A DNA stretch of 64,000 nt from the IMG/VR virus record IMGVR_UViG_3300045988_183163; one strand, 5' to 3'. Position 1 is the first letter of the stretch, and every line of letters begins with the position of its first letter. Shown here piece by piece: positions 911 through 63,945 of the stretch. Both the position numbers and the translations under genes were made by a program. Under the pieces are notes generated by a model. That model saw nothing but the letters and a program-made list of their open reading frames with translations. It searched no databases and was not told the origin of the DNA. Origin of the DNA: a virus.

Positions 911-1018
911 GATAAACTCCTTTCATACTTTTTATGGTATACAATTCGCAAGAGCCTGCAACAGGAAAATAAAAAAAGCTGCCCAACCGAAGCTGGACAG
1001 CCTATTTATGATTATGTA

Positions 1019-1399: not shown

Positions 1400-1533
1400 G
1401 TCGGTTCCTCCTTTTTGTGCCAATTATAGCATATATCTGTACAAAACGCTATATCCCACATGAGGAATCTCGATGTTTGAGCAATGGCTCAACAAAAAAA
1501 TGCCGCCACCCTTTCGGATGACGGCAAGTGATG

Positions 1534-3438: not shown

Positions 3439-3805
3439 ACCATCTTTGCTCAGCTAGGTCTTAATTAGACCGTGAACGAATGAACCATAGTCAGCTGTAT
3501 ATTGTTTGGCTTTGGCTTCGTGGCTGCTGATGATGGCGTCTACTCGCTAAATTATGTTTCGAATCATGGTAAAGTCCTCCTTGAAGGTTTGTAATTGTTA
3601 TACGGTATATATAAATACGCTCTTAACGCGGCGTTCGCGTGCAGGAACATTTATATAAACACATTGACGCTGTGTACGCGTGCTATGTTGATTAGCATAG
3701 CAATTCTATATAATCAGCCTTTCCTTCGGCTGTCAGAAGTCCACATTCCGTGGGATGAATCTATATTAAACGCAGAAAATCTGCGGGAATCCTCAAAAAG
3801 AAAAA

Positions 3806-3834
3806 GGACAGAAACCCAATATGGGCATCTGTCC
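3806..3834. terminator. bidirectional intrinsic terminator hairpin
   Basis: GGACAGAAACCCAATATGGGCATCTGTCC. On the minus strand it is followed by TTTTTCTTTTTG; on the plus strand by TTCTTCC. Confidence 0.5.
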
Positions 3835-4224
3835 TTCTTCCAGGAGGTATATGAACTATGGCAAATCAATGATATCTCTGTTACATTATCTATTTTATGG
3901 GTGTCGCACACGCCGTCAAGAAGCTGTATAAACTTTTTTGAAAAAAGTTTGCACGCGTGTTAGTGGCTTTTTAGAATGTTACAACATCGTGCAAAGTCGT
4001 GCAACATTGTGTTTAGTTCTCCGATACAGAGCAAACAAAAGATACTGTACCACTCCAATCACCTGGAGTCAGATTTGCTTTCACCGTATAGTTTGAGGTG
4101 ATACTAGCCAAGGCATCGTCACGTTTTCACGTTGTTTTGGGTGTTTCCACTATTATCGGGAAATCGCAAAAAATGTCAAAAAGAAAAAGCCGTCCACCAA
4201 ACGGTGAACGGCTTTCGTGACAAT

Positions 4225-4844: not shown

Positions 4845-4871
4845 TATTATTTTAGTGTACGCGATTCGCAC
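4845..4871 (-). promoter_or_regulatory. conserved promoter family copy (TTGCTA-N16-TACACT with GTGCGAATCGCG in the spacer)
   Basis: Read on the minus strand: TTGCTAatatGTGCGAATCGCGTACACT. Confidence 0.5.
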
Positions 4872-4917
4872 ATATTAGCAAAAGCCGCTCACCCTGTGAA
4901 GGGCAAGCGGCAAGAGG

Positions 4918-8160: not shown

Positions 8161-8565
8161 TCAACGAGCGTTTGTGAATACGGCAACAACCAGCTCCTCG
8201 TAGTCTTCGATGGCACAGTAGATGTCAGCGAAACCATAGGCGTGGCCACGGTCGTAGGCTTTTTGCCAGAGGATGGTTGCAGCCTTTTTGGAAATGCTGC
8301 GTTTCGTTTCGGCTTTGATGTCTTCCTGAATTTGAAGTTCGATAGCTTCCGAGATGTGTTCGATTTCTGCATTCTGCGCCTTCTTCAGCCGAGAGCATTC
8401 CGCATCCCAGGCTTTCTGTCGGCGAACGACCTCTTCCCTGTTCCAGCGCACCGATTTCTCTTCGTCGATGATTTCACCGTCTTTCGGGCGTTTAGAGTTG
8501 GGCCTTGTTGGTCTTTTCCAAGCAGTTTCGAGTCGGTTGCCAAGATTTGTCCATACGTTATCCAT
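8161..8565 (-). CDS. hypothetical protein
   Basis: Start at MDNVWTNLG with RBS AAGGAG; charged, helical. Confidence 0.5.
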   Translation of the reverse strand: MDNVWTNLGNRLETAWKRPTRPNSKRPKDGEIIDEEKSVRWNREEVVRRQKAWDAECSRLKKAQNAEIEHISEAIELQIQEDIKAETKRSISKKAATILWQKAYDRGHAYGFADIYCAIEDYEELVVAVFTNAR

Positions 8566-8583
8566 AGTTAAACTCCTTTTTTG

Positions 8584-8632
8584 TACGCAAAAAGGCGAAC
8601 CTCCCGGTGTGTGAAGTCCGCCTAAAAGCGAA
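8584..8632 (-). terminator. intrinsic terminator inside a promoter-proximal leader
   Basis: Minus-strand RNA forms the hairpin GGCGGACUUCACACACCGGGAGGUUCGCC followed by UUUUUGCG. It lies between promoter 8691..8718 and gene 8161..8565. Confidence 0.55.
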
Positions 8633-8635
8633 GTG

Positions 8636-8698
8636 TGAATTGTACGAGCACACAGTGTGCTTAGTAGATGGTATCTATCGTACAAGCTAAATTATACG
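8636..8698 (-). promoter_or_regulatory. conserved about 63-nt leader element (TTGTACGAtAGATAccATCTACT..GCACA....GTGCTCGTACAATTC), copy A
   Basis: It starts about 6 nt after the -10 box. It contains the inverted repeats TTGTACGA/TCGTACAA and two inner hairpins. A near-identical copy lies at 19182..19251. Confidence 0.5.
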
Positions 8699-8718
8699 GG
8701 TCTCGCACGAAAGCGCAA
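8691..8718 (-). promoter_or_regulatory. conserved promoter family copy (TTGCGC-N16-TATAAT)
   Basis: Minus strand reads TTGCGCtttcGTGCGAGacccgTATAAT. Confidence 0.5.
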
Positions 8719-8724
8719 GATTAT

Positions 8725-9579
8725 TCATCCATTGCTACAGTCACCAAACAGCAAATTATATGCTTTTTCGATTTCAGAATCAGACATGGCCTTCCCTTTT
8801 TCTTCAATGCTGTGCAGAATTAGAGTCTTGTCGCTCACATCCAGTTTGTTGCGATTTTCGTCCTGCGCAAGATACTCTTTGATTTCGGACCACTGCGCAT
8901 CACGCTGGTTCAGAGCGTCAACGTTCTGGACACAGAACGGGTACTCACTTTGCGGCATAGCACCGGAAAGGTATTTGGTATCGTCGCAATACATCTTGAT
9001 AAGCCGGACAATATAGTTCCGCTCTGCTTTGGTTCTCGCAGTCAGAATGTTGCTTGCGCTCTGGTACTTGTAGTTATCCCCAACAGCTTCCAACGACTCT
9101 GCAATCTGTCGAAAACTCAGCATTTCGTTTGTGGCCTTGTCATGCTGCGACACGGTGGAAGCATAGTATCCTTGTTCCGTTTCGTTTGCTTCTACCACGG
9201 CAGCGAGATTCGAGTCAATATGGATGAGCCGTTCACTGTTATCCCCTTGCGCACGAATTGTGTTGTTCACTTTCGCAATCCAACTGTCAGTTTCCGTAGC
9301 ATCATCGCCCGCATAGAGGTAGGTTACAATATCCGGGTTAGTAGGGTTCGGAAGTTCCGCACAAGCCAAGGTCAGATTTCGCCCGTATTCTTTTGCCTGA
9401 AGGTACATGTTCGGATAATCGTCTTGTATTGTCTGAGCGATTGCCTCAACCTCGGCCTCGTCTTTTTCAATGACAAGGCCGACAGTGGCTACCTGCTCTT
9501 CAATGTTGAGCTGCTTCAAAATATCCTCAAGGTCGAATACAATAGCTTCTTTGTTGTTTGTATAGAATCGGATTTTCAT
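8725..9579 (-). CDS. hypothetical protein
   Basis: Start at MKIRFYTNN with RBS AGGAGGAAAATCT. Confidence 0.5.
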   Translation of the reverse strand: MKIRFYTNNKEAIVFDLEDILKQLNIEEQVATVGLVIEKDEAEVEAIAQTIQDDYPNMYLQAKEYGRNLTLACAELPNPTNPDIVTYLYAGDDATETDSWIAKVNNTIRAQGDNSERLIHIDSNLAAVVEANETEQGYYASTVSQHDKATNEMLSFRQIAESLEAVGDNYKYQSASNILTARTKAERNYIVRLIKMYCDDTKYLSGAMPQSEYPFCVQNVDALNQRDAQWSEIKEYLAQDENRNKLDVSDKTLILHSIEEKGKAMSDSEIEKAYNLLFGDCSNG

Positions 9580-9662
9580 AGATTTTCCTCCTGGCAACAA
9601 TAAAAAAGGCAGGCCCTCGGTTGGAAGGTCTGCCAAAAAACAGTTTGAGAATTGCAAAAAGG

Positions 9663-9863
9663 TCATTGTGCGGCTTTGACAGCTGCGTTTATCATTGTGT
9701 AGGCAATATCCAGGAGCCGAAACGCAAGAACTCCAAAAGATAATGCTACCAGCAAAAAGCAAAACACAAATTTTTGTTTGTTCTCACCCTGGAAATAGTA
9801 CATTCCAAAGCAGGACGCGATGAGAACGCAGAGAAACACAACGACCCAAATAATATCAGCCAT
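9663..9863 (-). CDS. small membrane protein
   Basis: 66 aa, two TM helices. Its ATG overlaps the stop of the upstream gene (ATGGCTGA), suggesting translational coupling. Confidence 0.4.
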   Translation of the reverse strand: MADIIWVVVFLCVLIASCFGMYYFQGENKQKFVFCFLLVALSFGVLAFRLLDIAYTMINAAVKAAQ

Positions 9864-10473
9864 TGTCCTGATTTTGATTTTGCTGAGTCGGCTGGGTCTT
9901 GACTTCAGCAGGAGCATTCGGAGTTTGATACTGAACATTCTGGCTCGGCTCTTTGGGAGTTTCGGGAGCCTGGTACTGAACAGTACTGGGGTTGTTCTGC
10001 TGTTCGGCTTTCTTTTCCTCATATTTGGTCTTGAGCTGAGAATAGGAATAGCCATCCTGCGGGATACCGTGATACTCATAATGGCCGAAAGCAAGAATCA
10101 TGTTGAACACCGGATTCAGAAGGCAAAGACCAATCGTGAAACCAATACCTTCACCGAACGCAACAGCTTTCTTGTAGTTGGTGATAGCACCGATGATGAG
10201 AGCAACGACCAGGAACAGATTGCCGAACAGCGGGATACCGGACAAAAGGCTCAGCACGACCGGAATCAGAAACAACCAGCCGTTCCCCCAGTAAATGTTG
10301 AATTCGATGTAGTTGCTGTAGAACGGGACGATGGATGCCCAGCCAGGCTGCCCGGCCTTCTCAAAAATTTTCCAATTGGCGACGATTTTGAGCACAAAAT
10401 ACGCTACCACCAGAAGAATCACCGTATAGAGCATACCGCCCAAAAGATTCAATGCGCTGTAAGAATTATACAT
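9856..10473 (-). CDS. membrane protein with four TM helices and a Gln/Pro-rich C-terminal tail
   Basis: 205 aa with four hydrophobic helices and a low-complexity QYQAPETPKEPSQNVQYQTPN tail. Confidence 0.5.
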   Translation of the reverse strand: MYNSYSALNLLGGMLYTVILLVVAYFVLKIVANWKIFEKAGQPGWASIVPFYSNYIEFNIYWGNGWLFLIPVVLSLLSGIPLFGNLFLVVALIIGAITNYKKAVAFGEGIGFTIGLCLLNPVFNMILAFGHYEYHGIPQDGYSYSQLKTKYEEKKAEQQNNPSTVQYQAPETPKEPSQNVQYQTPNAPAEVKTQPTQQNQNQDNG

Positions 10474-10507
10474 TTTATATCCTCCTCTTTCGGCATATGA
10501 AGCCGGA

Positions 10508-10837
10508 TTATTCCTTCACTAAGTTCTTTGCCTGTCGCTGCCGCTCTGCAAGTTCTTTGCCGCGTCTGACCAGTTCCGCATATTGCTCTTCGGTCAGCTT
10601 GCGAGGCGGCTTGATTTTGACCCATTTCTTGGGCATATCTGCCTCCATACACCAGTCCTCATCCCGCGTGATTTTAACAGCATCAGGGTACTCTTTGGCA
10701 AGCTCTTTTAGCTGTTCCATACGAGCTTTGTTGCAGGTGTAGTAGGATGCTTTCTTCTCCGCATCGTTGAACGTGATGATGGTTTCGCGTTCCCAGGGTC
10801 TATCAGATGCCTGCGTGGCCACTTTTTTATCGGGCAT
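10508..10837 (-). CDS. hypothetical protein
   Basis: 109-aa charged ORF. Confidence 0.45.
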   Translation of the reverse strand: MPDKKVATQASDRPWERETIITFNDAEKKASYYTCNKARMEQLKELAKEYPDAVKITRDEDWCMEADMPKKWVKIKPPRKLTEEQYAELVRRGKELAERQRQAKNLVKE

Positions 10838-10851
10838 GATTTTTTCTCACC

Positions 10852-11067
10852 TCAATCGAATAAAATTGCCGACATAGCAGGGCCTTCGAAGATATACCCG
10901 CTCGCCTCGGCCCATTTCGGCGTCATGAGCTTGCCATTTGCTTTCACAAGCACCATCTTCCGAGCAGAGGTATTCAGGAATTCCGCCGGAGCCCAGTTAT
11001 TTCGCACAACGACGATAGCGTTGTCGTCCGCGTTCTCAAGCATATGCTTCAGCTCTTTTACCGTCAC
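10852..11067 (-). CDS. hypothetical protein
   Basis: 71-aa ORF. Confidence 0.4.
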   Translation of the reverse strand: MTVKELKHMLENADDNAIVVVRNNWAPAEFLNTSARKMVLVKANGKLMTPKWAEASGYIFEGPAMSAILFD

Positions 11068-11071
11068 CGTG

Positions 11072-11368
11072 TCACCTCCCGTTCAACACATCATCCAGTG
11101 CCTGCAAGAAAACTCTGGATTCCTCATTGATTCCGCCGCGACACAGAACTTTCGCAATATCATCAAATCCTACCAAGTACATATTTTCTTCACCCATGTA
11201 CCCTTGCGGCCAGGGAACCGCATAGTAGTTGTGCGGAACAGAACTTGTGTCATAGCCGACCACAATATATTTCTGGTCTGCAACATTTTTCACCGTCAGG
11301 ATAGTCCCAAGCGGTAACGCGTCTTTCATGGAATGAGTAGTTGCAGGCATGATTCTCTGAATTTTCAA
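11072..11368 (-). CDS. hypothetical protein
   Basis: 98-aa ORF; promoter copy at 11390..11417 lies upstream. Confidence 0.45.
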   Translation of the reverse strand: MKIQRIMPATTHSMKDALPLGTILTVKNVADQKYIVVGYDTSSVPHNYYAVPWPQGYMGEENMYLVGFDDIAKVLCRGGINEESRVFLQALDDVLNGR

Positions 11369-11389
11369 AACAGCACCTCCCTAATTTTC

Positions 11390-11417
11390 ATTTTATGAGA
11401 CTCGCACATTTGCGCAA
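11390..11417 (-). promoter_or_regulatory. conserved promoter family copy (TTGCGC-N16-TAAAAT)
   Basis: Minus strand reads TTGCGCaaatGTGCGAGtctcaTAAAAT. Confidence 0.45.
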
Positions 11418-11539
11418 GGAAACTGAAAACAAAAAAAGCGGCCGCTCCAAAAGGAACGACCGCAAAGATACGAGTCAGATATTATTCATTGAGCTGGGCA
11501 AGGATACCCGTGACTTCAGTCATGGGAGGAATTGTTCCT

Positions 11540-12802
11540 TCACCTTCTTTCTGTAATATAATTTGTTGCGACTTCTAGTAGCCGCATTTTTTTGTAGGAC
11601 GCGCTATTAGAAACAACAGTACCGTCCAATTTTTTAAGAGCGAAGTATCCAGAAGTTCGTCTGCCTGTGATAAAGCATTCTGAGCCATTATAGGATACTT
11701 TGTCCCAAAGACGATAACCCTTTACGGTGTACGGAGCTTGATTAGCCTTGCGTATACCACCTTTTAGGATAGTTGCTTTGTGCAGCTGTCTGTTATGGTG
11801 GCGTATAGCCTTCGTGTAGTAGCAAGTATCGCAAGGTATGGCCAATGGGTTCTTGCTAATGCAGCGTGCATCGTTGGTGTGACTTTTAGGAATACTATGC
11901 TTCTCACGCAAGTACTTGGTTATGTAGCCATAAGTCCCTTGTACCGGAATCTTCAGCTCTTTAAGCAAGCGTTCCATAAGTGTCTTACGCATAACCCCCA
12001 TAAAAGCTGCATCTTTGAGAGACCTGCCACGTTTTTTGCCGTCAAGTGTTACTTTTCCAGCGTGTAGAGCTTTATGGCAAGCTGTGCATAGCGTGATAAG
12101 GTTGTTTGGCGCATTGCCACCTGTTCTACGGGTCTCGATATGATGCACATGCAGCTTTACAGCTTTTGTTTTTGTTGGATGCGCACCGCAGCATTGGCAC
12201 GTATAATTGTCACGCTTTAACACATACTGGCGTACATTGTACTCATCGTACATTTCACCAAGCTGATAGTCTGTGCCTACCGGCAGAGGTTTACCTTCCA
12301 GCATTGCTTTTAGACGTTGTGTGTCAAACTCTGCTGTTTCTACTCTGACGAACGTAACAGGCAAAATACGACATACTCGCTTGATAAGCGTAATGTGTTC
12401 TTGAATCTTGACCTCCACTGATGGCGCTAACCAGCCCTTATGCTTGCTATGCACTCTGTTGTTGAAACGCGGCGCACGGTAACGGGTTTTGCGGTTTCGC
12501 CTGCTGCGTCTGAAAGCACGGCGTGCAGAAAGCAAATCAACCACATCATTGCGTGGAGTTGCCTCTTCGCAATAGAGTTCGTACTTTTCAGTGGCAGCAG
12601 ATATGCCAATATGTTTGCTGCCTGCATCTACGCCCAAAGTAATAGGTTGTTTGTATCCTGTACTTCCATACAGGAGCTTGATTGTAAACGGTGTGCGTTT
12701 TACAACGCATGCTTTCTTCTGCTTTAACAATAAGCGAGCCTTGCGTGGAGAGCACGGCATCAAAGGTTCGCCGTGTTTGTTAAGCACATACACATATTGC
12801 AT
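11540..12802 (-). CDS. iscB: IscB, OMEGA RNA-guided nuclease (PLMP, split RuvC, HNH domains)
   Basis: PLMP motif HGEPLMPCSPRKARLL; RuvC-I LGVDAGSKHIG; Arg-rich bridge helix RRAFRRSRRNRKTRYR; RuvC-II VRVETAEFD; HNH CQCCG...HHIE...NLITLCTACH; RuvC-III SHTNDARC. 420 aa; RBS AAGGAG. Confidence 0.8.
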   Translation of the reverse strand: MQYVYVLNKHGEPLMPCSPRKARLLLKQKKACVVKRTPFTIKLLYGSTGYKQPITLGVDAGSKHIGISAATEKYELYCEEATPRNDVVDLLSARRAFRRSRRNRKTRYRAPRFNNRVHSKHKGWLAPSVEVKIQEHITLIKRVCRILPVTFVRVETAEFDTQRLKAMLEGKPLPVGTDYQLGEMYDEYNVRQYVLKRDNYTCQCCGAHPTKTKAVKLHVHHIETRRTGGNAPNNLITLCTACHKALHAGKVTLDGKKRGRSLKDAAFMGVMRKTLMERLLKELKIPVQGTYGYITKYLREKHSIPKSHTNDARCISKNPLAIPCDTCYYTKAIRHHNRQLHKATILKGGIRKANQAPYTVKGYRLWDKVSYNGSECFITGRRTSGYFALKKLDGTVVSNSASYKKMRLLEVATNYITERR

Positions 12803-13091
12803 GATACCATGCTCCTTTCTATTTGTGTGACAGCTAATGATAAGCTGTCCTCTCCTCCGAAGAGGAGTTACTTCCGAAGAAGCTAATCCTTCCCCAAAGT
12901 TATAAGCGGTTTAATGCAGCCACACCTGTTGTCTTTACCTCAGATTTCTTTGATGTGTTGCCTTAGAGCGTGCAGTTAGGATTAACGCCGCACGGTAACT
13001 ATCTATTCGCTTATAACGGAGTGCTCGAAGCACTTAGGGTAGTCAACATATCCTTTCGGACATTTCTAAAGCGTAGACTCGCTGATGCAAG
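12803..13091 (-). ncRNA. candidate omega-RNA of IscB (located 5' of iscB up to the LE hairpin)
   Basis: 290 nt with no ORF between the LE hairpin and the iscB start. It contains several GC-rich stems (for example GGAAGTAACTCCTCTTCGGAGGAG). The position matches the known IscB omega-RNA layout. Confidence 0.4.
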
Positions 13092-13111
13092 CCCGCGACT
13101 TTAGTCGTGGG

Positions 13112-13597
13112 TTATTGACGGGAATCAGCTTTCCTGAAATCAGAAAGTTGATTCTCAGTGGAACACTGCACGAAAGGAATTCCCGTGCGCGAATTCACAA
13201 AAACGTCTGTGGTAGCAAACGCATTGCCAAAACTCATGTCACAGAAAACGACGTGAGAACTTTCGTCACCAGATGCACGGGGCGCAAAGCTGGTACATGC
13301 AAACCAATCCAATTCATCCTGCCCCTGTTCATCATAAAGATAAATGACGGGAGCCGGAATGTTGGGCGTCGGCATAGCCAGTGAGCCAACCTGCATTTCA
13401 TTGACACAGAGGTCAATGGGCGGGTTCCCGTTCTGATAATCCCATTTGGGGTATGACTGAGCCCTGATGGTGGTGTCGCCATCATCTACCTCGATGCCAA
13501 GAGCAGCGATATCGAATGGAATACCGAGCTTTTCCTTGATTTCTTCCGGGGTGAAAGTTAGGAGCTTACCGTGTTCGCCTTGGATGTAGAGTCTCAT
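13112..13597 (-). CDS. hypothetical protein
   Basis: 161-aa ORF. Confidence 0.5.
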   Translation of the reverse strand: MRLYIQGEHGKLLTFTPEEIKEKLGIPFDIAALGIEVDDGDTTIRAQSYPKWDYQNGNPPIDLCVNEMQVGSLAMPTPNIPAPVIYLYDEQGQDELDWFACTSFAPRASGDESSHVVFCDMSFGNAFATTDVFVNSRTGIPFVQCSTENQLSDFRKADSRQ

Positions 13598-13600
13598 GGC

Positions 13601-14173
13601 TTACTTTTCCTCCTTTTTCTTGTCGGCGTTCAGAATCTTTTCCAGAACGTCGTTATAAAAATCGTCAAGGAACAGACCGGTTTCTTCATCCGCTTCCGGA
13701 GCAGTGAAAACACCGTCTCCTTCAGCTGAATCCTGTACAGCGTCGAAGACACCGATTGTGCCCCTAAGTTCATCGGCCAGAAGGTCATAGCCGAGGTCCT
13801 TCACTTTTGCCGAGAGGTCAATCAGCAGCATTTTCTGCCGAAAGAACTCGTTCATATCCAAGCCAATGTAGGGTTTCGCTGCAACATTGTTTTTCTGAGA
13901 CTTTACTTTGAAAATGCCCCAGTCAAAGTTGCTGTCTGCGCCGTACATATACCCGGACGCAAGGCAGAAACCGTCTGCTGCACTGTCCTCAACGTTGATA
14001 CCGACTTCAAAATCGCTGCCGGAATCTTCATCCAGGTTAATCGCAGAGCCTGTTGCCTTTTCGTACTCTGCCTCAACGTCAGTTTTCATGGCTGCCAGTA
14101 GAGCGTTGAAATCGGTATTCTGGGAAAGCAAGTTCATGCTTTCGCCTTCCTGGTTTTTAATGAGAATGTACAT
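13601..14173 (-). CDS. hypothetical acidic protein
   Basis: 190-aa ORF with RBS AGGAGGTAAATACT. Confidence 0.5.
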   Translation of the reverse strand: MYILIKNQEGESMNLLSQNTDFNALLAAMKTDVEAEYEKATGSAINLDEDSGSDFEVGINVEDSAADGFCLASGYMYGADSNFDWGIFKVKSQKNNVAAKPYIGLDMNEFFRQKMLLIDLSAKVKDLGYDLLADELRGTIGVFDAVQDSAEGDGVFTAPEADEETGLFLDDFYNDVLEKILNADKKKEEK

Positions 14174-14192
14174 AGTATTTACCTCCTAACAA

Positions 14193-14432: not shown

Positions 14433-14455
14433 TTTGATTATTTCCTTTCTTTTAT

Positions 14456-14492
14456 ACGCAAAAAGGCGAACCACCCAAATGGGAAGTTCGCC
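14456..14492 (-). terminator. intrinsic terminator in a promoter-proximal leader
   Basis: Hairpin GGCGAACUUCCCAUUUGGGUGGUUCGCC followed by UUUUUGCG on the minus strand; it lies downstream of promoter 14562..14590. Confidence 0.55.
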
Positions 14493-14561
14493 TAAAGCGC
14501 ATTGTTAAGTGTGCGAAGGGCAGGGTGCCTTTTCGATAACTGTTATCTATCGTACATTTTT

Positions 14562-14590
14562 GATTATAGGCCGTTCGCATAAATCCGCAA
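14562..14590 (-). promoter_or_regulatory. conserved promoter family copy (TTGCGG-N16-TATAAT), followed by a diverged ATGTACGATAGATAAC element
   Basis: Minus strand reads TTGCGGatttATGCGAACggccTATAATcaaaaATGTACGATAGATAAC. Confidence 0.5.
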
Positions 14591-14619: not shown

Positions 14620-14629
14620 TAATGAAAAA

Positions 14630-15495: not shown

Positions 15496-15510
15496 AATAA
15501 AATCTCCTTT

Positions 15511-19123: not shown

Positions 19124-19172
19124 ACAAAAAAAGGCAGGCCCATCATGAAGATGAGTCTGCCTTGAATGAGAA
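19124..19172 (-). terminator. intrinsic terminator in a promoter-proximal leader
   Basis: Hairpin AGGCAGACUCAUCUUCAUGAUGGGCCUGCCU followed by UUUUUUUG on the minus strand; it sits between the leader element and gene 18206..19033. Confidence 0.55.
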
Positions 19173-19181
19173 CAGAATTAT

Positions 19182-19251
19182 GAATTGTACGAGCACGCGG
19201 TGTGCAAAGTAGATGTTATCTGTCGTACAACTTTAATACTATGGAATTCGC
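19182..19251 (-). promoter_or_regulatory. conserved leader element copy B (TTGTACGAcAGATAacATCTACT..GCACA....GTGCTCGTACAATTC)
   Basis: About 85 percent identical to 8636..8698, with compensatory changes in the inner stems. Confidence 0.5.
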
Positions 19252-20809: not shown

Positions 20810-20963
20810 AGTATTCATCCTTTCTGAAATATTTTTGTTTCTAATCAGTACATACAAAAAAAGAAGCAGGCCCTCAAAAGAGAGTCTGCTTACTTGTGCA
20901 TGACAGATTGTTAATTTAATGTTCAATTAGGAGGTAAGTGATGGTATCTGTTATGCAATTATT

Positions 20964-20991
20964 ATTTTAGGCGGTTCGCACATTTGTGCAA
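20964..20991 (-). promoter_or_regulatory. conserved promoter family copy (TTGCAC-N16-TAAAAT)
   Basis: Minus strand reads TTGCACaaatGTGCGAACcgccTAAAAT. Confidence 0.45.
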
Positions 20992-23831: not shown

Positions 23832-24203
23832 ATGGACGCGACAATGCAGACGGTTCTCCGGCTCCATGAGCAAGGTATACCTAGAAGAACCATTGCCAAA
23901 CGTGCAGGCATCTCATTGCAGAAAGTGCGCAAAATACTGATTACGGCCGGGGCCTGGTCAGATGAAACATCAGAAAAAATCGGGAAGCTGCGTGCGAACG
24001 GTATGTCAGTTCCTGAAATTGCAGAAGAATTGGGTGTAAAAACCAATACTGTTTGGAGCTATTTGCCATACAGCAAAGGCATGTATAATCAAGAATATCC
24101 GACCATTAACGCCATTCGAGTCCGAAATTCGAAGCGAAAAGCAAAAGAAAAAGCCCTCACCTGCACGGATACCGCACAGAATGAGGGCAGTGGCGCTTGC
24201 TGA
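23832..24203 (+). CDS. helix-turn-helix DNA-binding protein (two HTH-like segments)
   Basis: IAKRAGISLQKVRKIL and MSVPEIAEELGVKTNTVWSYL. It is the only plus-strand gene in the first 50 kb. Confidence 0.45.
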   Translation: MDATMQTVLRLHEQGIPRRTIAKRAGISLQKVRKILITAGAWSDETSEKIGKLRANGMSVPEIAEELGVKTNTVWSYLPYSKGMYNQEYPTINAIRVRNSKRKAKEKALTCTDTAQNEGSGAC

Positions 24204-24976: not shown

Positions 24977-25344
24977 TTTTTCTTGCTGCCTTTCTGTATT
25001 GCAGGCAACAAAAAAGCTGCCTGCCGAAATCTCGACAAGCAGCTATGACATGCAGTTATCGCTTAGAAGACGCACCGCATCTGTACATGGTCTGTTTTTG
25101 CCTGTCGAGGAGTATGAGAAATAAAACTGCGTTCATAAGAGCTGAACTCAGATTCATAACTATACTCATACGACATTACATTAACAGTGTTGCACAGCAT
25201 TTTGGGGTATCTCCTTTCGTTTCGTTCTGATATTATTATAGCATGTTTTTGCACATTTGCAATCAACTTGTGGTTTAGTTTTTTGGTCTGTATACTCTCC
25301 AAAACAAAAAGCCGCCTCTTATGTGAGGACGGCTTTTCTTATTG

Positions 25345-31735: not shown

Positions 31736-32026
31736 CGGCTGGCGCGGAGTTACCCGCGCCAAATGGGAAATAAAGAGGTATGAAAGGAAGGATATTACTA
31801 TGAAACGGATGATTTTCACGCTTCACCTGTGTCAGCTCAAATGAAGCCATGCGACCAAGATTGGGGAAAGGAAAACCTTGATGTCTCAGGAGCCGTTCCT
31901 CTTCCTGAGAACAATTGTATTATACCATATATGTGGTATCCGGTCAATGAAAAGACACAATATATAGTGTCTAAATTGTAAACAAACATTAAGATACCAC
32001 TATATCTAGTGGTTGGGGCAAGCGCA

Positions 32027-34284: not shown

Positions 34285-35680
34285 ACATTGACACACTCCC
34301 ACGATTAAAATCGTGGGATTCTACTTCAACGAGGCCGCTGGCTGACCCAGTCTTACGCCTCTCGGTAACGGCATGGTGCCCCATCCGTGAGAGTATTTTT
34401 ACGCAGTGTAGCCCGTTTGAGTTAATCCCATACGGCATATATTGATAGCTGCATTGACGTCTCTTTCGTGGTGCGTGCCGCAAGATGGGCAATTCCACTG
34501 CCGCTGCTTGAGTGTGAGCTTCGGGTAGATGTACCCGCAGCGACTGCAGCACTTGCTGGATGGAGCGAAACGGTCAATTTTCACGACCTCCGTGCCACAG
34601 TTGGATGTTGTCCACTCAAGGATTTTGACAAACTCACCAAACGCTATATCATTGATTTTGCGTCCCCAGAGTTTTTGCATCCCTGCAAGATTTAAGTTTT
34701 CAATGCAGATGATAGCGTAATCCGCTATCAGTTGGTAAGCAACCTTAAAGAACCAATCGGTGCGTTGGTTACATATTTTTCGATAGATACGTTCCAACTC
34801 TTTAATTGCTTTCTTACGGTTATTACTTCCCGGCTTACAGCGTGAAATATGTCTTTGCACTCGCTGCAGCTCTTTCAGAGAGGCTTTATACCATTCAGGG
34901 GAATCTATCACGCTGCCGTCATCCAAGTTGAGGAAGTGCTTCAAGCCAAAATCCATCCCGACAGCTTTACCTGCTCGTGGAAGAATTTCATTACATTCCT
35001 CTTGGGTGACGACAAAGAGGTAGACATCACCTAAATTGTCGCGCTTGACGGTTAAGGTTTTCACTTTACCCTTCAAAGGACGAGAATCGAAATAGCGATA
35101 CTTCTTACCATTGATGGTGACGCTGCCTTTGCCGTCAAACTTATAGCCTGCCTGTTTGAGCGTGAAGCTTTTATACATCTCGCGCTTCTTAAATTTCGGC
35201 AGCGACTTCTTGGTAGGATGCGCCTTTTTCTTATTATCAAAATAGGCTTTATAGGCGCGGTCAACGCGCTCCACCACATCCTGAATAGCTTGGCTGCCAA
35301 GATTGTGCCAGTGACCCCACTTGCGGCGCTTGCAGATTTTAGCAATGTACTTTTTCAAATCATTGGCTTTAAGCGTTTTGCCATAGACCAAATAGTACAT
35401 ACGCCGCATAGCAATGCAAAAATTCCAAATCTCGGAGGCTATTTCTATCTGCTGAACAAGATACTTGTTCTTCTTGTTGTTATACAGTTTGTACTTGTAG
35501 GTTTTCATTACAAGACGAATGAGTAGTAGCCTCCTTTTCTTTAGAATCTACTATCTATGGTACGCAATTCGCACGCTTTGACAGCAAAAAATGCTGTCCA
35601 TCTTGCGGATATGCAGCGTGAATTGATTCGTTCTTAACGCCTTTCATCCCACGACTAAAGTCGTGGGTTTTCCCGGCTTG
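34285..35680 (-). mobile_element. IS200/IS605-like element carrying tnpB only
   Basis: LE hairpin CCCACGACTAAAGTCGTGGG at 35648..35667 and RE hairpin CCCACGATTAAAATCGTGGG at 34298..34317 flank an intact tnpB. Confidence 0.65.
34399..35508 (-). CDS. tnpB: TnpB (RuvC-like RNA-guided nuclease, IS605 OrfB family)
   Basis: 369 aa; N-terminus MKTYKYKLYNN; RuvC-I GMDFGLK; RuvC-II IICIENL; zinc finger CSRCG...CPSCG; RuvC-III HERDVNAAINI. Its omega-RNA is expected to overlap the 3' end and RE (about 34290..34520). Confidence 0.8.
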   Translation of the reverse strand: MKTYKYKLYNNKKNKYLVQQIEIASEIWNFCIAMRRMYYLVYGKTLKANDLKKYIAKICKRRKWGHWHNLGSQAIQDVVERVDRAYKAYFDNKKKAHPTKKSLPKFKKREMYKSFTLKQAGYKFDGKGSVTINGKKYRYFDSRPLKGKVKTLTVKRDNLGDVYLFVVTQEECNEILPRAGKAVGMDFGLKHFLNLDDGSVIDSPEWYKASLKELQRVQRHISRCKPGSNNRKKAIKELERIYRKICNQRTDWFFKVAYQLIADYAIICIENLNLAGMQKLWGRKINDIAFGEFVKILEWTTSNCGTEVVKIDRFAPSSKCCSRCGYIYPKLTLKQRQWNCPSCGTHHERDVNAAINICRMGLTQTGYTA

Positions 35681-36876: not shown

Positions 36877-36904
36877 ATTATATGGAACCCGCAATGCATT
36901 GCAA
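36877..36904 (-). promoter_or_regulatory. conserved promoter family copy (TTGCAA-N16-TATAAT)
   Basis: Minus strand reads TTGCAAtgcaTTGCGGGTtccaTATAAT. Confidence 0.45.
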
Positions 36905-40478: not shown

Positions 40479-40506
40479 ATTGTACGCAATTCGCACAGAT
40501 TAGCAA
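40479..40506 (-). promoter_or_regulatory. conserved promoter family copy (TTGCTA-N16-TACAAT)
   Basis: Minus strand reads TTGCTAatctGTGCGAATTGCGTACAAT. Confidence 0.5.
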
Positions 40507-41211: not shown

Positions 41212-41239
41212 ATTGTATGCGTATCGCACGTTTTTGCAA
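41212..41239 (-). promoter_or_regulatory. conserved promoter family copy (TTGCAA-N16-TACAAT)
   Basis: Minus strand reads TTGCAAaaacGTGCGATAcgcaTACAAT. Confidence 0.45.
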
Positions 41240-43626: not shown

Positions 43627-43654
43627 ATTGTCTGCAATTCGCACAGTTTCGCAA
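43627..43654 (-). promoter_or_regulatory. conserved promoter family copy (TTGCGA-N16-GACAAT)
   Basis: Minus strand reads TTGCGAaactGTGCGAATTGCAGACAAT. Confidence 0.45.
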
Positions 43655-43687: not shown

Positions 43688-44326
43688 TCATAGTCCTTTG
43701 ACAAAATTCGGGTCGTAGTGGGACAGGACTTCCTCGTTCAAGCTGTATTCGCAGTTGATAGTCGTTGCGTCATCCACATACATGCCTCGGTTTGCGTAGT
43801 ATATTCCATCAATATAAATGGCGAACATGACGGACGGCATCAGTGCCTTTTCATTCACTGCGTAAATCAGGTATTCATCCAGATTATCCTTGACCACCGC
43901 GCTCTTATTGATTTGGGCGATTTGCTGTCCGCCAAGAAATACAGGGCAGCATACTCCTTCTTTTCCAAAACCAATTTTGTAGCTCTGGTATTCCTCGCCA
44001 TACAGCTGCATGGCGATAGAATTGTATCCTTGGAGGAATCCGGTTTTTGTATGGATGACGGAAATCTCGCCTACCGTGCAGTTGTTCTCACGGATAGCAA
44101 AAGGGTGTCTCAGAATATCTTTTGTGTTGATGCCGCGCATGTACGCCCTTGCGTCAGCAGCTGGCATGTATTGCAGCAGGAACTTGGAATCATTCAGCCG
44201 GATGCCATAACCCTGCCGTAGCAATTTCGGGATATAGTGTGCCTGCCCGATAACGGCCTTGCCTTTCACGATATCGAAGGTGAACTCATATCCTTTCGAT
44301 TTGGTTTGCTTCACAATCCATTGCAA
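43688..44326 (-). CDS. hypothetical protein
   Basis: 212-aa ORF. Confidence 0.5.
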   Translation of the reverse strand: MQWIVKQTKSKGYEFTFDIVKGKAVIGQAHYIPKLLRQGYGIRLNDSKFLLQYMPAADARAYMRGINTKDILRHPFAIRENNCTVGEISVIHTKTGFLQGYNSIAMQLYGEEYQSYKIGFGKEGVCCPVFLGGQQIAQINKSAVVKDNLDEYLIYAVNEKALMPSVMFAIYIDGIYYANRGMYVDDATTINCEYSLNEEVLSHYDPNFVKGL

Positions 44327-44753
44327 GACTCATCGCCTCCTTTTGCCTTCTCACTCGCTGGATAACCTTGTAAATACCAGGAACCGAGAGCTGATATTTT
44401 TCGGATAGTTTCTGCACCGGCACACCACTCTCGTATTCTCGAAAGATATTCTCATTGCGGGGTTTTTGCCGAATTTTGATGCGCTCATTTCTACGGTTTT
44501 CAGTCAGGCCCGCATCGTTGGCAACCATGCTGCAATATCCTTCTGCCACGTTAAATTTCGCAATCATTTCCTTGAGAGGGACACTGTTCTTGTATGCCGC
44601 AAGAATTTCGGCCTTTCTAGCATCCTCTACCTGCGCCAACTGAATTCTGGCCTCCTGTTTCGCGTCGTCTAACGCTCGATAGCATGTACGGACGCTCAAC
44701 CTGTATTTTGCGGCAAGCTCCTCAATGGAATAGCCGTTGCCGTAGTCTTTCAT
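44286..44753 (-). CDS. DNA-binding protein with two sigma-70 region-4-like / resolvase-type HTH repeats (start uncertain)
   Basis: Repeats YSIEELAAKYRLSVRTCYRAL and VPVQKLSEKYQLSVPGIYKVI. The ORF-track start at 44864 lies upstream of promoter 44837..44864, so it was trimmed to the next ATG. Confidence 0.4.
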   Translation of the reverse strand: MKDYGNGYSIEELAAKYRLSVRTCYRALDDAKQEARIQLAQVEDARKAEILAAYKNSVPLKEMIAKFNVAEGYCSMVANDAGLTENRRNERIKIRQKPRNENIFREYESGVPVQKLSEKYQLSVPGIYKVIQRVRRQKEAMSLAMDCEANQIERI

Positions 44754-48345: not shown

Positions 48346-48373
48346 ATTATCTTCGATTCGCACGATTCAGCAA
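48346..48373 (-). promoter_or_regulatory. conserved promoter family copy (TTGCTG-N16-GATAAT)
   Basis: Minus strand reads TTGCTGaatcGTGCGAATCGAAGATAAT. Confidence 0.45.
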
Positions 48374-50784: not shown

Positions 50785-51116
50785 GTTCTTTCGTTCTCCT
50801 TCGTTTGGATAGTTTTTGCACAAATACTTCAATGTAGTATTTGTTGTACAACTACTATTGTACCGAGCTCGCATATTCCGGCAAGCAAACAACCATTACA
50901 AATTGGTAACCATTCGTGCAGCAGCTGACGATAACCGCCGGTTGTAGAAGCAGCGGACGGAACAGTGTATTACATTGACCCGACGTTCAACAGCGACGGG
51001 GACTACGAACGGTTCTTCTGGAAAGAAGAGCTGGAAGACCACAATATCGAAATCGACATTGTGCGCATCCGTGCTATGACGAACTGCTGCCGCAAGTTCA
51101 AGACGATGTAACTACA

Positions 51117-51157: not shown

Positions 51158-51205
51158 TTTGACGAAACTTGCGAACAGCATACAATAAGTGTTGTACGAC
51201 AGATA
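51158..51205 (+). promoter_or_regulatory. conserved promoter family copy on the plus strand (TTGACG-N16-TACAAT), followed by TTGTACGACAGATAA
   Basis: TTGACGaaacTTGCGAACagcaTACAATaagtgTTGTACGACAGATAA; a terminator hairpin at 51244..51276 follows. Confidence 0.5.
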
Positions 51206-51243
51206 ATAAACCGACATCAACCATTCATAATCTGACAAATTCA

Positions 51244-51276
51244 GACAGGCACCAATCGGGTGACCTGTCTTTTTTG
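51244..51276 (+). terminator. leader terminator downstream of promoter 51158..51185
   Basis: GACAGGCACCAATCGGGTGACCTGTC followed by TTTTTTG; it precedes gene 51316..51666. Confidence 0.5.
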
Positions 51277-63389: not shown

Positions 63390-63846
63390 TGTTTTTCTCC
63401 TCCCACAATTCTTTCTAACATAATTATATCATATTTTACAGATGGACGGGCCAAAATCGCAACTTTGTTCATGAATACTTAAACTTTATGCACGAGATTT
63501 ATTGTTGCCCTAATATATAAAACTAGAACCCCGTCATCTTGGATGGGGCTCTTGAGTTGTAACTGGAGGTGTATCTCATTTTGTGCCAGGGGTATTGTAT
63601 GGTAGTTTTCGAAAATGAGTGCAAAAAAACAAACACCAGAAGTCGAACTCAAAAATATCTTAGTCTTGGCAAGTTTACCCTTGCGCCGCTGTGCGAACTT
63701 CGTACAATAAGAATTGTACAAGAGAAACGGCAAGAGACATTTGTAGTGATTGTAGTTGGTCGCCACGAATCGATGCCGTGTCTGCTTGCGCATAATTACC
63801 TCTTTTCGAAGCCCACAGGTCATTCTCTCACCTGTGGGTTTTGTTT

Positions 63847-63874
63847 ATTGCGGAATCGTGCGAATTGCAGACAA
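63847..63874 (+). promoter_or_regulatory. conserved promoter family copy on the plus strand (TTGCGG-N16-GACAAT)
   Basis: TTGCGGaatcGTGCGAATTGCAGACAAT. Confidence 0.45.
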
Positions 63875-63945
63875 TTAAAGACAGAGCGATTGTGAGATGG
63901 GGCGATACCGATGCAGTAGGAATGAGAATCTTAGCAGCTAAAAGA

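Follow-up and report, generated by a model that had tools for sequence, protein, structure and literature searches.

An invariant TGCGA spacer element in a predicted promoter class with an attached leader RNA from large phage-like gut genomes

The window analysed here, a 64,000-nt stretch of viral DNA, contains 22 copies of one promoter architecture, TTG(C/A)-N7-TGCGA-N6-TAnAAT, for which fewer than 0.1 copies would be expected by chance. This architecture is specific to a lineage of phage-like gut genomes of 220-270 kb, in which it looks like the general promoter of the element's core programme, and we infer that most operons of such a large genome start from a predicted TGCGA promoter. Judged by their genomic context, it is well supported that the sites are genuine promoters. 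Our preferred reading, to which we assign a probability of about 0.4, is that they are sigma-A-type promoters predicted to need a lineage-specific factor at the TGCGA block.

Scanning the window with a position weight matrix (PWM) yielded 21 sites of at least 23.7 bits and none in the range of 8 to 23.7 bits, and Markov shuffles gave 0.03-0.9 matches; the site at 23575, which has a 17-nt spacer, was added to give the total of 22 (Table 1). The initial annotation had reported about 16 copies. All 16 exist, 15 of them with coordinates correct to within 1 nt, but the class was under-counted, the additional sites being those at 934, 3892, 4152, 50857, 57811 and 63681. The interval it had put forward as the leading example, 4845-4871, was shifted, since the full minus-strand 28-mer spans 4854-4881, its GTGCGAAT lying at 4864-4871. 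The exact 16-nt spacer claimed for most copies was confirmed in 21 of 22, and so was the location in gaps at operon starts: all 22 copies share the orientation of the downstream gene and lie in gaps, or overlap only with the N-terminal extension of a longest-ORF call. Of the proposed conserved spacer core, TGCGA alone turned out to be invariant (21/21), whereas the full octamer GTGCGAAT is present in only 8 promoters; its ninth occurrence in the whole window (33680) lies within a gene.

Where they could be called, a ribosome binding site (RBS) and a start codon follow 20-200 nt downstream of the window copies. A terminator is located between promoter and gene for 10 of the 22 promoters, and by a strict test four copies lie directly 3' of a terminator hairpin with a T-run. 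A generic sigma-70 consensus scan showed no excess over the shuffled control, so the signal is the specific architecture and not promoter-like noise. The word TGCGA as such was counted 135 times overall against 142 expected, which rules out a restriction, methylation or avoidance word.

Table 1. Predicted promoters, leader RNAs and related features of the window. For 25235..25269, the lower bound is the end of TGCTATAAT and the upper takes in the -35.
Position	Strand	Feature	Details
934..961	-	TGCGA promoter, class A	TTGCAG-16-TACCAT; after terminator; RBS + ATG 23 nt past -10
3892..3919	-	TGCGA promoter	TTGACG-16-TAAAAT; degenerate leader
3800..3886	-	Degenerate leader RNA copy + terminator	35 bits
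4152..4179	-	TGCGA promoter, class A	TTGACA-16-GATAAT; after terminator
4854..4881	-	TGCGA promoter, class A	Copy of the initial annotation's leading example; core GTGCGAAT 4864-4871
8691..8718	-	TGCGA promoter, class B	Heads operon of NAD ligase gene
8587..8685	-	Leader RNA	5' stem P1, two hairpins, linker, terminator; 79 bits; fold z-score -5.3
11390..11417	-	TGCGA promoter, class A	
14563..14590	-	TGCGA promoter, class B	
14458..14557	-	Leader RNA + terminator	71 bits
19236..19263	-	TGCGA promoter, class B	Upstream of lysozyme gene
19126..19230	-	Leader RNA + terminator	86 bits; fold z-score -5.0
20964..20991	-	TGCGA promoter	Diverged leader box TGCATAACAGATACC
20858..20958	-	Diverged leader RNA + terminator	42 bits
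23575..23603	-	TGCGA promoter variant	17-nt spacer, TTGTGA ... TATAAT
35557..35584	-	TGCGA promoter without -35	CTGTCA; full GTGCGAAT block; upstream of TnpB
36877..36904	-	TGCGA-type promoter	Core TGCGG; leader terminator ~60 nt past -10
40479..40506	-	TGCGA promoter, class A	Heads helicase operon; leader terminator ~60 nt past -10
41212..41239	-	TGCGA promoter, class A	
43627..43654	-	TGCGA promoter, class A	Best direct repeat, TTGCGAA-N3-GTGCGAA
44837..44864	-	TGCGA promoter, class A	Upstream of Mor-like gene (predicted driver)
48346..48373	-	TGCGA promoter, class A	Heads VWA operon
50857..50884	-	TGCGA promoter	Degenerate box TGTACAACAAATAC
51159..51186	+	TGCGA promoter, class B	TTGACG-16-TACAAT
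51192..51276	+	Leader RNA + terminator	25 bits
57811..57838	+	TGCGA promoter, poor -35	TCGACA; full GTGCGAAT block; terminator ~63 nt past -10
63681..63708	+	TGCGA promoter	Degenerate box TGTACAAGAGAAAC
63848..63875	+	TGCGA promoter, class A	In relatives heads flotillin operon (predicted driver)
44289..44753	-	Mor-family protein	Three HTH units; tentative candidate block reader
23832..24203	+	123-aa protein	Two HTH units (HTH_23, HTH_7, sigma-r4-like); second tentative candidate
25235..25269	-	Canonical host-type promoter (contrast)	TTGATT-17-TGCTATAAT; upstream of XRE gene + tRNA array
31919..31953	-	Canonical host-type promoter (contrast)	TTGACC-17-TGGTATAAT; upstream of ribozyme + tRNA-Thr

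Contigs of 220-270 kb from human-gut samples served as relatives and provided 185 non-redundant promoter copies. In these the block is almost invariant (T12 100%, G13 97%, C14 100%, G15 99%, A16 99%), as are the hexamer positions T1 (99%), T2 (97%), G3 (99%), A24 (99%) and T28 (98%), and the 16-nt spacer is kept in about 98%; the class carries about 40 bits of information. Given the quality of the -35 and -10, host sigma-A might be able to initiate unaided. The geometry TTG-8-TGCGA-6-TAnnnT has 313 distinct occurrences; one alternative spacing reaches 46, which is a second TTG in a T-run 3 nt upstream at the same sites, and the others reach 13 at most. With positions 5-18 masked, the PWM still detected 188 distinct sense-strand sites in the gaps upstream of genes, compared to 21 antisense matches and a single match in the coding control. 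Hence the motif is not equally frequent in coding sequence, a condition under which the initial annotation would have had to be given up, and 180 of the 188 sites carry TGCGA with at most one mismatch. Inside orthologous promoter groups, variability is 0.003 in the block versus 0.078 in the upstream flanks. Upstream of TTGC there is no conservation and no dyad (at most about 0.6 bit at positions -19 to 0); positions -6 to -1 are T-rich across the 185 promoters, many copies being placed immediately behind a terminator hairpin with its T-run.

The conserved blocks form a direct repeat in many copies, TTGC-N6-GTGC being found in 98 and TTGC-N6-TTGC in 22 of the 185 promoters (together 120 with TTGC-N6-(G/T)TGC). 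The sequence next to the block varies with the type of -35. All eight promoters without TTG have the full GTGCGAA; G11 is present in 9 of 33 promoters with the canonical TTGAC but in 119 of 152 others (p = 4e-8), and A17T18 in 1 of 33 versus 70 of 152. The block acts like a positive element: it is most complete at promoters with an absent or non-canonical -35 and relaxed in its flanks at those with TTGAC. This link could also be due to shared ancestry of duplicated cassettes and not to energetic compensation.

A search of 596 Gb of bacterial genomes with the strict pattern gave 16 matches, 8 of them on the element's own contigs, and 185,579 species genomes yielded a single independent chromosomal site. 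One perfect site is located in the chromosome of Butyricicoccus pullicaecorum metagenome-assembled genomes (MAGs), in promoter position before a 33-aa ORF. Phages whose flotillin gene is 76-89% identical have zero copies of the motif and canonical promoters instead. For window positions 40000-48000 (8 kb), a near-identity DNA search against deposited phages gave no match, protein-level matches comprise a generic ligase and helicase only, and a literature search for the exact motif returned unrelated primers only. One protein of the lineage is found in 590 blocks of the public assembly index, and the likely host is a member of the Clostridia, with Butyricicoccus and other Oscillospirales as candidates. 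Promoters of the form TTGAnn-17-TGnTATAAT coexist in the same genomes, mostly before accessory genes but also before an XRE gene and tRNAs; compared to these, the TGCGA class lacks the TG at -15/-14 and its spacer measures 16 nt. The genes behind TGCGA promoters belong to replication and anti-defence or encode regulators, including every Mor-like regulator. The likeness to middle or late promoter classes drawn by the initial annotation is not supported.

Also overlooked at first was a conserved leader with a terminator, attached to about 40% of the copies. These run on into TGTACGATAGATA(C/A)CA, about 7 nt past the -10, at the predicted transcript start. We refer to them as class B (72 of the 185 promoters) and to the other 113 as class A. 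In class B, a structured leader follows whose 5' stem starts 6-7 nt past the -10, which lends indirect support to a predicted transcription start 6-9 nt downstream of this hexamer; near +95 comes an intrinsic terminator. Of the class B promoters, 70 of 72 have such a terminator, as have 36 of 113 of class A, the remaining 77 being without. In 69 of 72 class B promoters (63 at the main offset, 6 one nt shorter), about +3 to +8 is occupied by a -10-like hexamer, which is TACGAT in nearly all cases; in class A it stands at the right place in only 15 of 113 promoters, and about 75-85% of this class lack it. In total, about 60% of all copies are without this pause-like hexamer, and most of these are also without a terminator.

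The terminator helix co-varies, and RNAalifold, applied to the MAFFT alignment, recovered no other structure. With 90% pairing and a conserved 3' strand, stem P1 is invariant and thus receives no support from co-variation. A predicted antiterminator helix, in which the linker can pair co-varyingly with the 5' arm of the terminator, is significant only in an alignment-free duplex permutation test and not on the MAFFT alignment. A stretch of about 60 nt is similar between the leaders at 8691 and 19236. Comparison of window positions 8300-21000 with Rfam gave no family for the leader, neither at the gathering threshold nor at E <= 5.

The block is asymmetric and invariant, its spacing is fixed, it is fullest without a canonical -35, and the same genomes hold TGnTATAAT promoters without it; for these reasons it is reasonable to infer that it is read by something besides the normal sigma contacts. 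To this extent we follow the initial annotation, which had also named an alternative sigma; this was sought in the sampled lineage sequence and none was found (see below). According to our preferred reading, host sigma-A RNA polymerase would recognise the -10 (TAnAAT) and part of the -35 (TTG), and a lineage-specific DNA-binding factor would read (G)TGCGA(A) at about -24 to -18, the promoter working only with this factor. The TGC of TTGC, which lies one helical turn upstream and forms the other half of the direct repeat, is probably read by the factor too. Placed between sigma regions 4 and 2, where it may hold the complex in one rigid geometry, it would act like an activator overlapping the -35 (class II) or like a sigma appropriator. 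The result would be a private promoter class for the core programme of the element. The structured leader would add a second layer in about 40% of the copies and, as it ends in an intrinsic terminator, these operons would also need antitermination.

With respect to the reader of the block, Mor-like multi-HTH proteins (PF08765) are the only activators recognised in the sampled lineage sequence. The protein of the window matches PF08765 with E = 7e-12, and its paralogues are 23-43% identical. Its AlphaFold2 model (pLDDT 77) has three HTH units and gave no significant fold match, none being Q- or AlpA-like; the predicted C-terminal HTH matches Mu C in the transcription initiation complex 9l0x locally, the overall match being non-significant. 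Because every Mor-like paralogue is preceded by a TGCGA promoter, such an activator would need basal expression or delivery with the virion to start, and the triple-HTH paralogues as block reader are only a guess. The relatives of the protein that could be retrieved are at least 86% identical, apart from one chimeric sequence with 70% over part of its length, and therefore no clade with altered protein and altered motif is available for a co-variation comparison. Two proteins of 465 and 509 aa behind a canonical promoter were considered as early factors and have no Pfam or PDB sequence matches.

Searches for other transcription proteins were negative in the sequence covered. A phmmer search with regions 2 and 4 of RpoD/SigA against six frames of 2.28 Mb of lineage sequence detected no similarity (best E = 0.33), nor did two additional SigF-like and ECF-like queries, which were approximate sequences. 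The catalytic motif of beta' (DFDGD as a regular expression) does not occur in the sampled lineage sequence. Among the Pfam families listed for 69 large and 122 small conserved proteins and for the window proteins (one list giving 25 of 44 families) there is no Sigma70 or RNA polymerase, and among the families listed (25 of 44 in the one list) no MotA or AsiA homologue. The complete family lists and the window proteins contain no Q or AlpA family, and Phage_CII was not seen in the Pfam scans. Capsid, portal and terminase genes were not seen in the sampled sequence, which is biased towards motif-bearing regions, so that the DNA outside the sample may contain a sigma or Q-like gene. The consensuses of sigma-H (GAAT), sigma-D (GCCGATAA), sigma-54 (GG-N10-GC) and ECF/sigma-I (CGAA), the Spo0A box (TGNCGAA) and the LexA Cheo box, compared by eye, fail in spacing or partner element.

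The block might instead be the loading site of a promoter-loaded antiterminator of the Q/AlpA type, with initiation independent of it, an explanation we regard as rather unlikely. Here, sigma region 2 would pause on TACGAT, and the factor at TGCGA would join the polymerase and pass the terminators of the leader and of the operon end. GTGCGAA, with predicted binding at about -24 to -18, has an AlpA-like place between -35 and -10, and a site so short, asymmetric and invariant would fit a single HTH; the hexamer at fixed offset and the leader terminators of class B, of part of class A and of 10 of the 22 window promoters agree with this. However, class A mostly lacks hexamer and terminator while its TGCGA is equally invariant, the promoters without -35 argue for a role in polymerase recruitment, and RNA-level features of class B (the P1 3' strand and the co-varying linker pairing) would be superfluous for Q-type systems. 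The absence of Q and AlpA families from the complete Pfam lists also counts against it, although a new Q family would go unseen by Pfam, as Q families are mutually unrelated. We are similarly doubtful of a genome-wide regulon of promoter-embedded loading, in which a new protein family unrelated to Q, AlpA and MotA docks on TGCGA at each core promoter. If true, the factor would ride with host polymerase, and the cassettes of promoter, pause, leader and terminator would be timed gates, present in dozens; the single Q switch of lambda would recur throughout a genome of 250 kb, linked to cis-regulatory leader RNAs of a new class.

It seems improbable to us that the element encodes a divergent sigma which reads TTGC, TGCGA and (G)CATACAAT and displaces host sigma-A on the core polymerase. 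A rigid, information-rich class with some 40 bits that differs from the canonical class of the same genome would suit such a sigma, as would an extended -10 reading GCATACAAT, which we take to resemble the CATACAnT -10 elements of Bacillus sporulation sigmas. Phage sigmas like SPO1 gp28 and T4 gp55 are too divergent for simple searches. Against such a sigma stand the negative six-frame phmmer search of 2.28 Mb and the missing Sigma70 family among those listed by Pfam. We know of no sigma that reads a base-specific element at -23 to -19 and, since core early-type genes and all regulators use TGCGA promoters, a phage sigma would need prior expression from another promoter. We likewise give little credence to host sigma-A acting unaided, with the block as an operator for a repressor or shut-off protein, or as the site of a host regulator, for joint down-regulation. 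The hexamers are reasonable sigma-A matches, the operons must be transcribed by something when infection begins, the element encodes XRE-like and BlaI-like repressors, and the chromosomal site of B. pullicaecorum leaves room for a host protein that knows the TGCGA site. But a short asymmetric site is unlike a dimeric operator, the 11-bp partial palindrome TGCGAAyyGCA is too compact for an HTH dimer, and a strictly invariant operator would be unusual and gives no reason for the fullest block without -35. Moreover, the TG extension and the 17-nt spacer of canonical promoters are systematically avoided, which would be strange if the promoters worked unaided, and the species genomes hold only one independent chromosomal site. 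Hardly credible is the idea that the block was inherited with recently duplicated cassettes and not selected. Promoter and leader do move together at a fixed offset, and some copies are paralogous, such as the leaders at 8691 and 19236. The conservation pattern already contradicts it: flanks and spacer positions 5-10 are unrelated among copies while three blocks are fixed, the blocks are 10-25 times less variable than the flanks in orthologous groups, terminator stems co-vary, and the block is kept in 185 non-redundant copies.

Very little is known about transcription control in uncultured large gut phages of Firmicutes. The lineage described here is common and has an unusually clean cis-code, with a promoter of about 40 bits, an invariant spacer element, an attached leader attenuator and hundreds of variants, and its natural variation might be turned into a readable grammar of elements between -35 and -10. 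With this cis-code, the identity of the block reader and a genome-wide use of Q/AlpA-style loading become testable. As compact orthogonal parts, promoter and leader could be of use in the engineering of Clostridia.

In terms of known systems, the sites have the features of sigma-70/sigma-A promoters, namely a TAnnnT -10, a TTGnnn -35 and a 16-nt spacer, and they lie upstream of and co-oriented with genes and not in coding sequence. Phage Mu uses two Mor-family proteins in sequence, and several such paralogues (PF08765) are present in our lineage. The dyad sites to which Mor and C of Mu bind (about -30 to -55) overlap the -35 region or lie upstream of it, at promoters without a -35 hexamer. In contrast, there is no upstream dyad here (at most about 0.6 bit from -19 to 0), a -35-like TTG is present, and the protein has three HTH units. 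The CII promoters of lambda (PRE, PI and PaQ) resemble ours in a direct repeat overlapping the -35, its counterpart here being TTGC-N6-(G/T)TGC in 120 of 185 copies, of which 22 have the exact TTGC-N6-TTGC. The CII repeats are situated about 4-5 bp further upstream than the repeat found here. CII, which binds TTGCN6TTGC flanking the -35 (PMC4651098), serves three lambda promoters. In the TGCGA class, it is the second repeat, lengthened to TGCGA(A), that does not vary.

The early promoters of T4, of the 'uber' or extended -10 type, also have more conserved positions than host promoters (PMC2988021). There, an UP element, TGn and A/T-rich positions are read by polymerase, whereas the spacer pentamer found here is G+C-rich and TGn is avoided. 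The middle promoters of T4, about 60 in number, resemble the TGCGA class in that a phage element with a TGC core is combined, at fixed distance, with a host-type -10; this element, the MotA box (a/t)(a/t)(a/t)TGCTTtA, has its centre at -30 and takes the place of the -35, with 12 +/- 1 bp between it and the -10 (PMC2988021). While the MotA box tolerates changes, the core described here is invariant, lies 6 bp from the -10 and is combined with a -35-like TTG. In the AlpA system of Pseudomonas aeruginosa, the element GGGACG is located at -25 to -20, between -35 and -10, with each base pair being essential, and is followed by the -10-like CACGAT at -1 to +5 and an intrinsic terminator downstream (PMC9371919). 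A Q cassette consists of promoter, Q binding element (QBE), sigma-dependent pause element (SDPE), terminator and genes, and the various families of Q are unrelated to one another (PMC9388147). The TGCGA class resembles AlpA at PalpB and lambdoid Q at PR' in the place of its block between the hexamers and in a promoter of the sigma-70 type and, mainly in class B, in an early nACGAT and a terminator before the genes. It differs in that about 60% of its copies are without the pause-like hexamer and in its conserved leader RNA structure, and while AlpA and Q control one promoter per genome, the TGCGA element is found at dozens.

All 16 promoter copies listed in the initial annotation were recovered in the window, and its observation of a promoter with a conserved spacer core could be confirmed and extended: the copies represent promoters of the sigma-A type that are built of three blocks and specific to the lineage. 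This TGCGA promoter reads TTG(C/A)-N7-TGCGA-N6-TAnAAT (28 nt), with TGCGA as its middle block. A PWM built from the known copies and then iterated found 21 window sites at or above 23.7 bits, none between 8 and 23.7 bits, and less than one match in shuffles; the site at 23575, with a 17-nt spacer, brings the total to 22. The copy placed at 4845-4871 is real, but its position was off by about 10 nt, the 28-mer lying at 4854-4881 (-). A conserved core was likewise correctly seen, with TGCGA present in 21/21 sites, whereas the longer GTGCGAAT is merely its commonest form. Each copy is directed toward the next ORF, in line with the claimed orientation on the coding strand. Many are immediately preceded by a terminator hairpin with T-run, and an RBS with start codon follows 21-202 nt past the -10 where callable. 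Since a generic sigma-70 scan of the window DNA gave no excess over background, the promoter signal lies in the specific architecture.

An exact-pattern scan of IMG/VR gave more than 116 stretches among the matches listed, nearly all from one contig group. Over 143 loci (1.5 Mb) of the lineage, which comprises the window's genome and related human-gut contigs, the PWM found 519 matches with 170 different 28-mers; the non-redundant set, loci of a second scan included, holds 185 promoters. Conservation in this set is T1 99%, T2 97%, G3 99% and C4 74% in the -35 region, G11 69%, T12 100%, G13 97%, C14 100%, G15 99%, A16 99% and A17 78% in the block, G20 84% in the extended -10, and T23 85%, A24 99%, A26 85%, A27 92% and T28 98% in the -10. 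The spacing is fixed (TTG-8-TGCGA-6-TAnnnT, n=313); the sole other sizeable count (46) arises because the T-run upstream of these sites offers another TTG, and no further spacing exceeds 13. Among orthologous promoters, variability in the three blocks is 10-25 times lower than in the flanks. As site selection by PWM could inflate conservation, the scan was repeated with positions 5-18 masked: among 188 distinct upstream-gap sites TGCGA is exact in 164, has one mismatch in 16 and more in 8. The same masked PWM gave a single match in the coding control, thus the motif is not equally frequent in coding sequence. TTGC-16-TAnAAT promoters without the block are in practice absent from the lineage.

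No TGCGA promoter was found in phages sharing the flotillin gene at 76-89% identity, whose intergenic regions carry ordinary TTGACn-17-TGnTATAAT promoters. The lineage also has such canonical, host-type promoters, 33 of them in gaps without the TGCGA motif. They precede an XRE-like gene with the tRNA array, a ribozyme with tRNA-Thr, IS elements, a restriction-like gene, two uncharacterised proteins (465 and 509 aa) and other accessory genes. With a stricter pattern and one genome for each of 185,579 bacterial and archaeal species (596 Gb in all), 16 matches were obtained. Eight matches lie on contigs of the window's own element and five are singletons, roughly the chance expectation. The other three come from Butyricicoccus pullicaecorum MAGs and represent one shared intergenic site on the chromosome, positioned ahead of a 33-aa ORF that carries its own terminator, with a PTS transporter gene on the other side; this site could be due to chance or point to the host or a host factor. 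Broad use of the architecture by any bacterial lineage appears to be lacking.

The window carries 17 tRNA genes and belongs to a large genome, which we call phage-like since capsid, portal and terminase genes were not seen in the sampled lineage sequence. Window proteins include an NAD-dependent ligase, a helicase, a DinB-type polymerase, flotillin, VWA proteins and a lysozyme; several elements of the RNA-guided or IS200/IS605 type are also found there (see table). Further lineage genes encode SecY, a trigger-factor C-terminal domain, DNA polymerase III alpha, a topoisomerase, several methylases and an actin-like ParM/Alp protein (listed with L282:3891-4850(-), L278:1596-7970(-) and other loci); a 2,124-aa glycine-rich protein is followed by a TGCGA promoter and then a Big_2-domain protein. 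A DNA search with window positions 40000-48000 gave no close match among deposited phages. One window protein has an identical copy on ENA metagenome contigs of 203-272 kb, and in IMG/VR it occurs at 100% identity on viral contigs up to 222 kb and at 87% on one of 389 kb. Another member of the lineage is a 223,830-bp contig that was deposited under the name 'Clostridiales bacterium HRGM_Genome_2451'. Compared with the related loci L002 and L007, the segment 50458-64000 is inverted, which explains the divergent gene orientation and GC skew change near 51 kb; in these relatives, 63390-64000 joins directly to the reverse complement of 50457 downwards, and a 55-bp inverted repeat (50403-50457 / 63946-64000), inside the HEARO region, is common to both breakpoints. 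GATC is absent from the 64-kb window (about 248 expected) and occurs 24 times in 2.2 Mb of lineage loci (about 9,600 expected); CTAG is strongly depleted too (15 vs 248). This scarcity looks like restriction-site avoidance.

Features of the window and of related loci (L-numbers denote sampled loci)
Feature	Position	Strand	Remark
Mor-family protein	44289-44753	-	candidate recognition protein (guess); paralogues 23-43% identity
Mor-like relatives	L174:7756-9945, L167:3355-4374, L181:12398-12958, L145:10280-10798		
Protein with two HTH units	23832-24203		DNA-binding protein
Canonical TGnTATAAT boxes	25235-25243, 31919-31927, 63423-63431, 56975-56983, 1423-1431	-	
B. pullicaecorum site	L273:7267-7294(-), L279:5555-5582(+), L280:2733-2760(+)		perfect TGCGA-type site TTGCATTTTTGTGCGAATCGCCTATAAT
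Leader behind promoter	8587-8685, 14458-14557, 19126-19230, 20858-20958, 3800-3886	-	covariance model
Leader behind promoter	51192-51276	+	covariance model
Degenerate, weaker leader copies	9601-9702, 19847-19945	-	covariance model; no promoter, inside operons
tRNA	30155-30230	-	anticodon not assigned by ARAGORN; in array of 17 tRNAs
HDV-like ribozyme (RF02682, Rfam)	31659-31739	-	directly 5' of tRNA-Thr (31579-31654)
HDV-like ribozyme (RF02682, Rfam)	45680-45749	-	between VWA gene and next ORF
IscB-like ORF	11540-13119	-	RRXRR + HNH domains; HEARO RNA adjoining
Second HEARO RNA	50197-50457	-	no adjoining ORF
TnpB gene	34399-35508	-	downstream of -35-less TGCGA promoter
IS200 TnpA beside TnpB-like ORF	26139-27869	-	

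A second layer is formed by a leader RNA. In 72/185 promoters (class B; those without the box are class A) the sequence runs on into TGTACGATAGATA(C/A)CA, a box that begins 6 nt (in a few cases 5 nt) past the -10, at the predicted transcript start. The sampled lineage sequence holds 190 distinct boxes, 166 of them behind a promoter of at least 16 bits at the same offset and about 12 more behind weaker copies. The leader of about 100 nt consists of a 5' stem (UUGUACGA paired with UCGUACAA) enclosing two small hairpins, a conserved linker (UUCAYAAUUCUG or UUUCG) and an intrinsic terminator just upstream of the RBS. A leader terminator follows 70/72 class B and 36/113 class A promoters, and 10/22 of those in the window. 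In the conserved leader, the terminator helix shows co-variation at 9/12 pairs; the 5' stem is 90% paired and uninformative in this respect because it is invariant. The linker is able to base-pair with the terminator's 5' arm, and as matched pairs are more stable than permuted ones (-5.93 vs -5.26 +/- 0.16 kcal/mol; 0/1000 permutations as stable), a terminator/antiterminator switch is suggested. No Rfam match to the leader was obtained, and this multi-copy leader attenuator attached to the promoters appears to be previously undescribed. The class A promoters at 36877 (-), 40479 (-) and 57811 (+) have no conserved leader box and are followed by strong intrinsic terminators about 60 nt past the -10, before any ORF; these may yield short transcripts or represent a second attenuator type.

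We tentatively regard the block as a site at which a factor must dock to help the host polymerase at these promoters (probability about 0.4). All eight promoters without TTG carry the full GTGCGAA, while G11 is found in 9/33 promoters with canonical TTGAC vs 119/152 others (p = 4e-8) and A17T18 in 1/33 vs 70/152. This trade-off fits modular elements that sum to recruit one complex and does not fit an operator; in part it could also reflect common descent of duplicated cassettes. A promoter used by the host alone, with the block as operator, is a reading we hold to be improbable. Unlike the neighbouring canonical class, TGCGA promoters keep a 16-nt spacer and avoid TG at -15/-14; the pentamer itself is neither avoided nor enriched genome-wide. 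In many sites the motif may also be taken as two direct repeat units spaced by one helical turn (TTGC-N6-GTGC 98/185, TTGC-N6-TTGC 22/185; best site TTGCGAA-N3-GTGCGAA), and the lambda CII target is TTGCN6TTGC around -35 (PMC4651098). In class B, the leader box opens with the hexamer GTACGA, a direct repeat of the block GTGCGA with one mismatch, 25 bp downstream of it (e.g. 8685-8718(-)). As TACGA also occurs as variant core in 4/185 promoter blocks, a second site for the same protein might lie at about +2.

The main rival, in which the block serves to load a Q/AlpA-like antiterminator, is possible but less probable than docking. The layout of class B speaks for it, whereas as the whole story it is opposed by the roughly 60% of promoters (class A) that keep the block mostly without pause-like hexamer or leader terminator, and by the -35-less promoters, which indicate a recruitment role. 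A docking factor and such an antiterminator are compatible and could both be true. A hidden phage sigma is rather unlikely: six-frame phmmer searches over 2.28 Mb with sigma regions 2 and 4 (RpoD, SigA queries) gave a best E of 0.33. A regex for the beta' catalytic motif had no match, and sigma, RNA polymerase, Q, CII and MotA families were absent among the Pfam matches listed (25 of 44 families in one scan) for window proteins and 69 large and 122 small conserved lineage proteins. Because Q families are mutually unrelated (PMC9388147), a new one would be invisible in Pfam.

Assigning any protein as reader of the block would be a guess. Apart from the tabulated proteins, one XRE-like and one BlaI-like DNA-binding protein were seen. 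Mor-like triple-HTH proteins are expanded in the lineage to at least four paralogue groups, with three members in tandem at one locus. The predicted structure of the window copy has three HTH units (pLDDT 77), and its comparison with Mu C in the initiation complex gave a local, non-significant match alone. Every Mor-like paralogue is preceded by a class A promoter; if one were the reader, the circuit would therefore be self-activating and need basal transcription to start.

Phages are already known to have promoter classes of their own that carry an additional recognition element. The sites bound by Mu Mor and C are located upstream of the -35, a region without conservation in the lineage promoters. 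T4 middle promoters similarly couple a phage element to a host-type -10; however, the MotA box is centred at -30, substitutes for the -35 and tolerates changes (PMC2988021), unlike the block. The Q/AlpA cassette is the closest architectural match to class B. In the AlpA system, the spacer element GGGACG at -25 to -20, with each base pair essential, is joined by a -10-like hexamer CACGAT at -1 to +5 and a terminator downstream of the promoter (PMC9371919). The counterparts in the lineage are GTGCGAA around -24 to -18, a -10-like hexamer around +3 to +8 in 69/72 class B promoters, which is TACGAT almost without exception, and a T-run about 100 nt past the -10. Three traits of the TGCGA class are unusual: the element sits within the spacer, it is invariant, and it is used across the genome.
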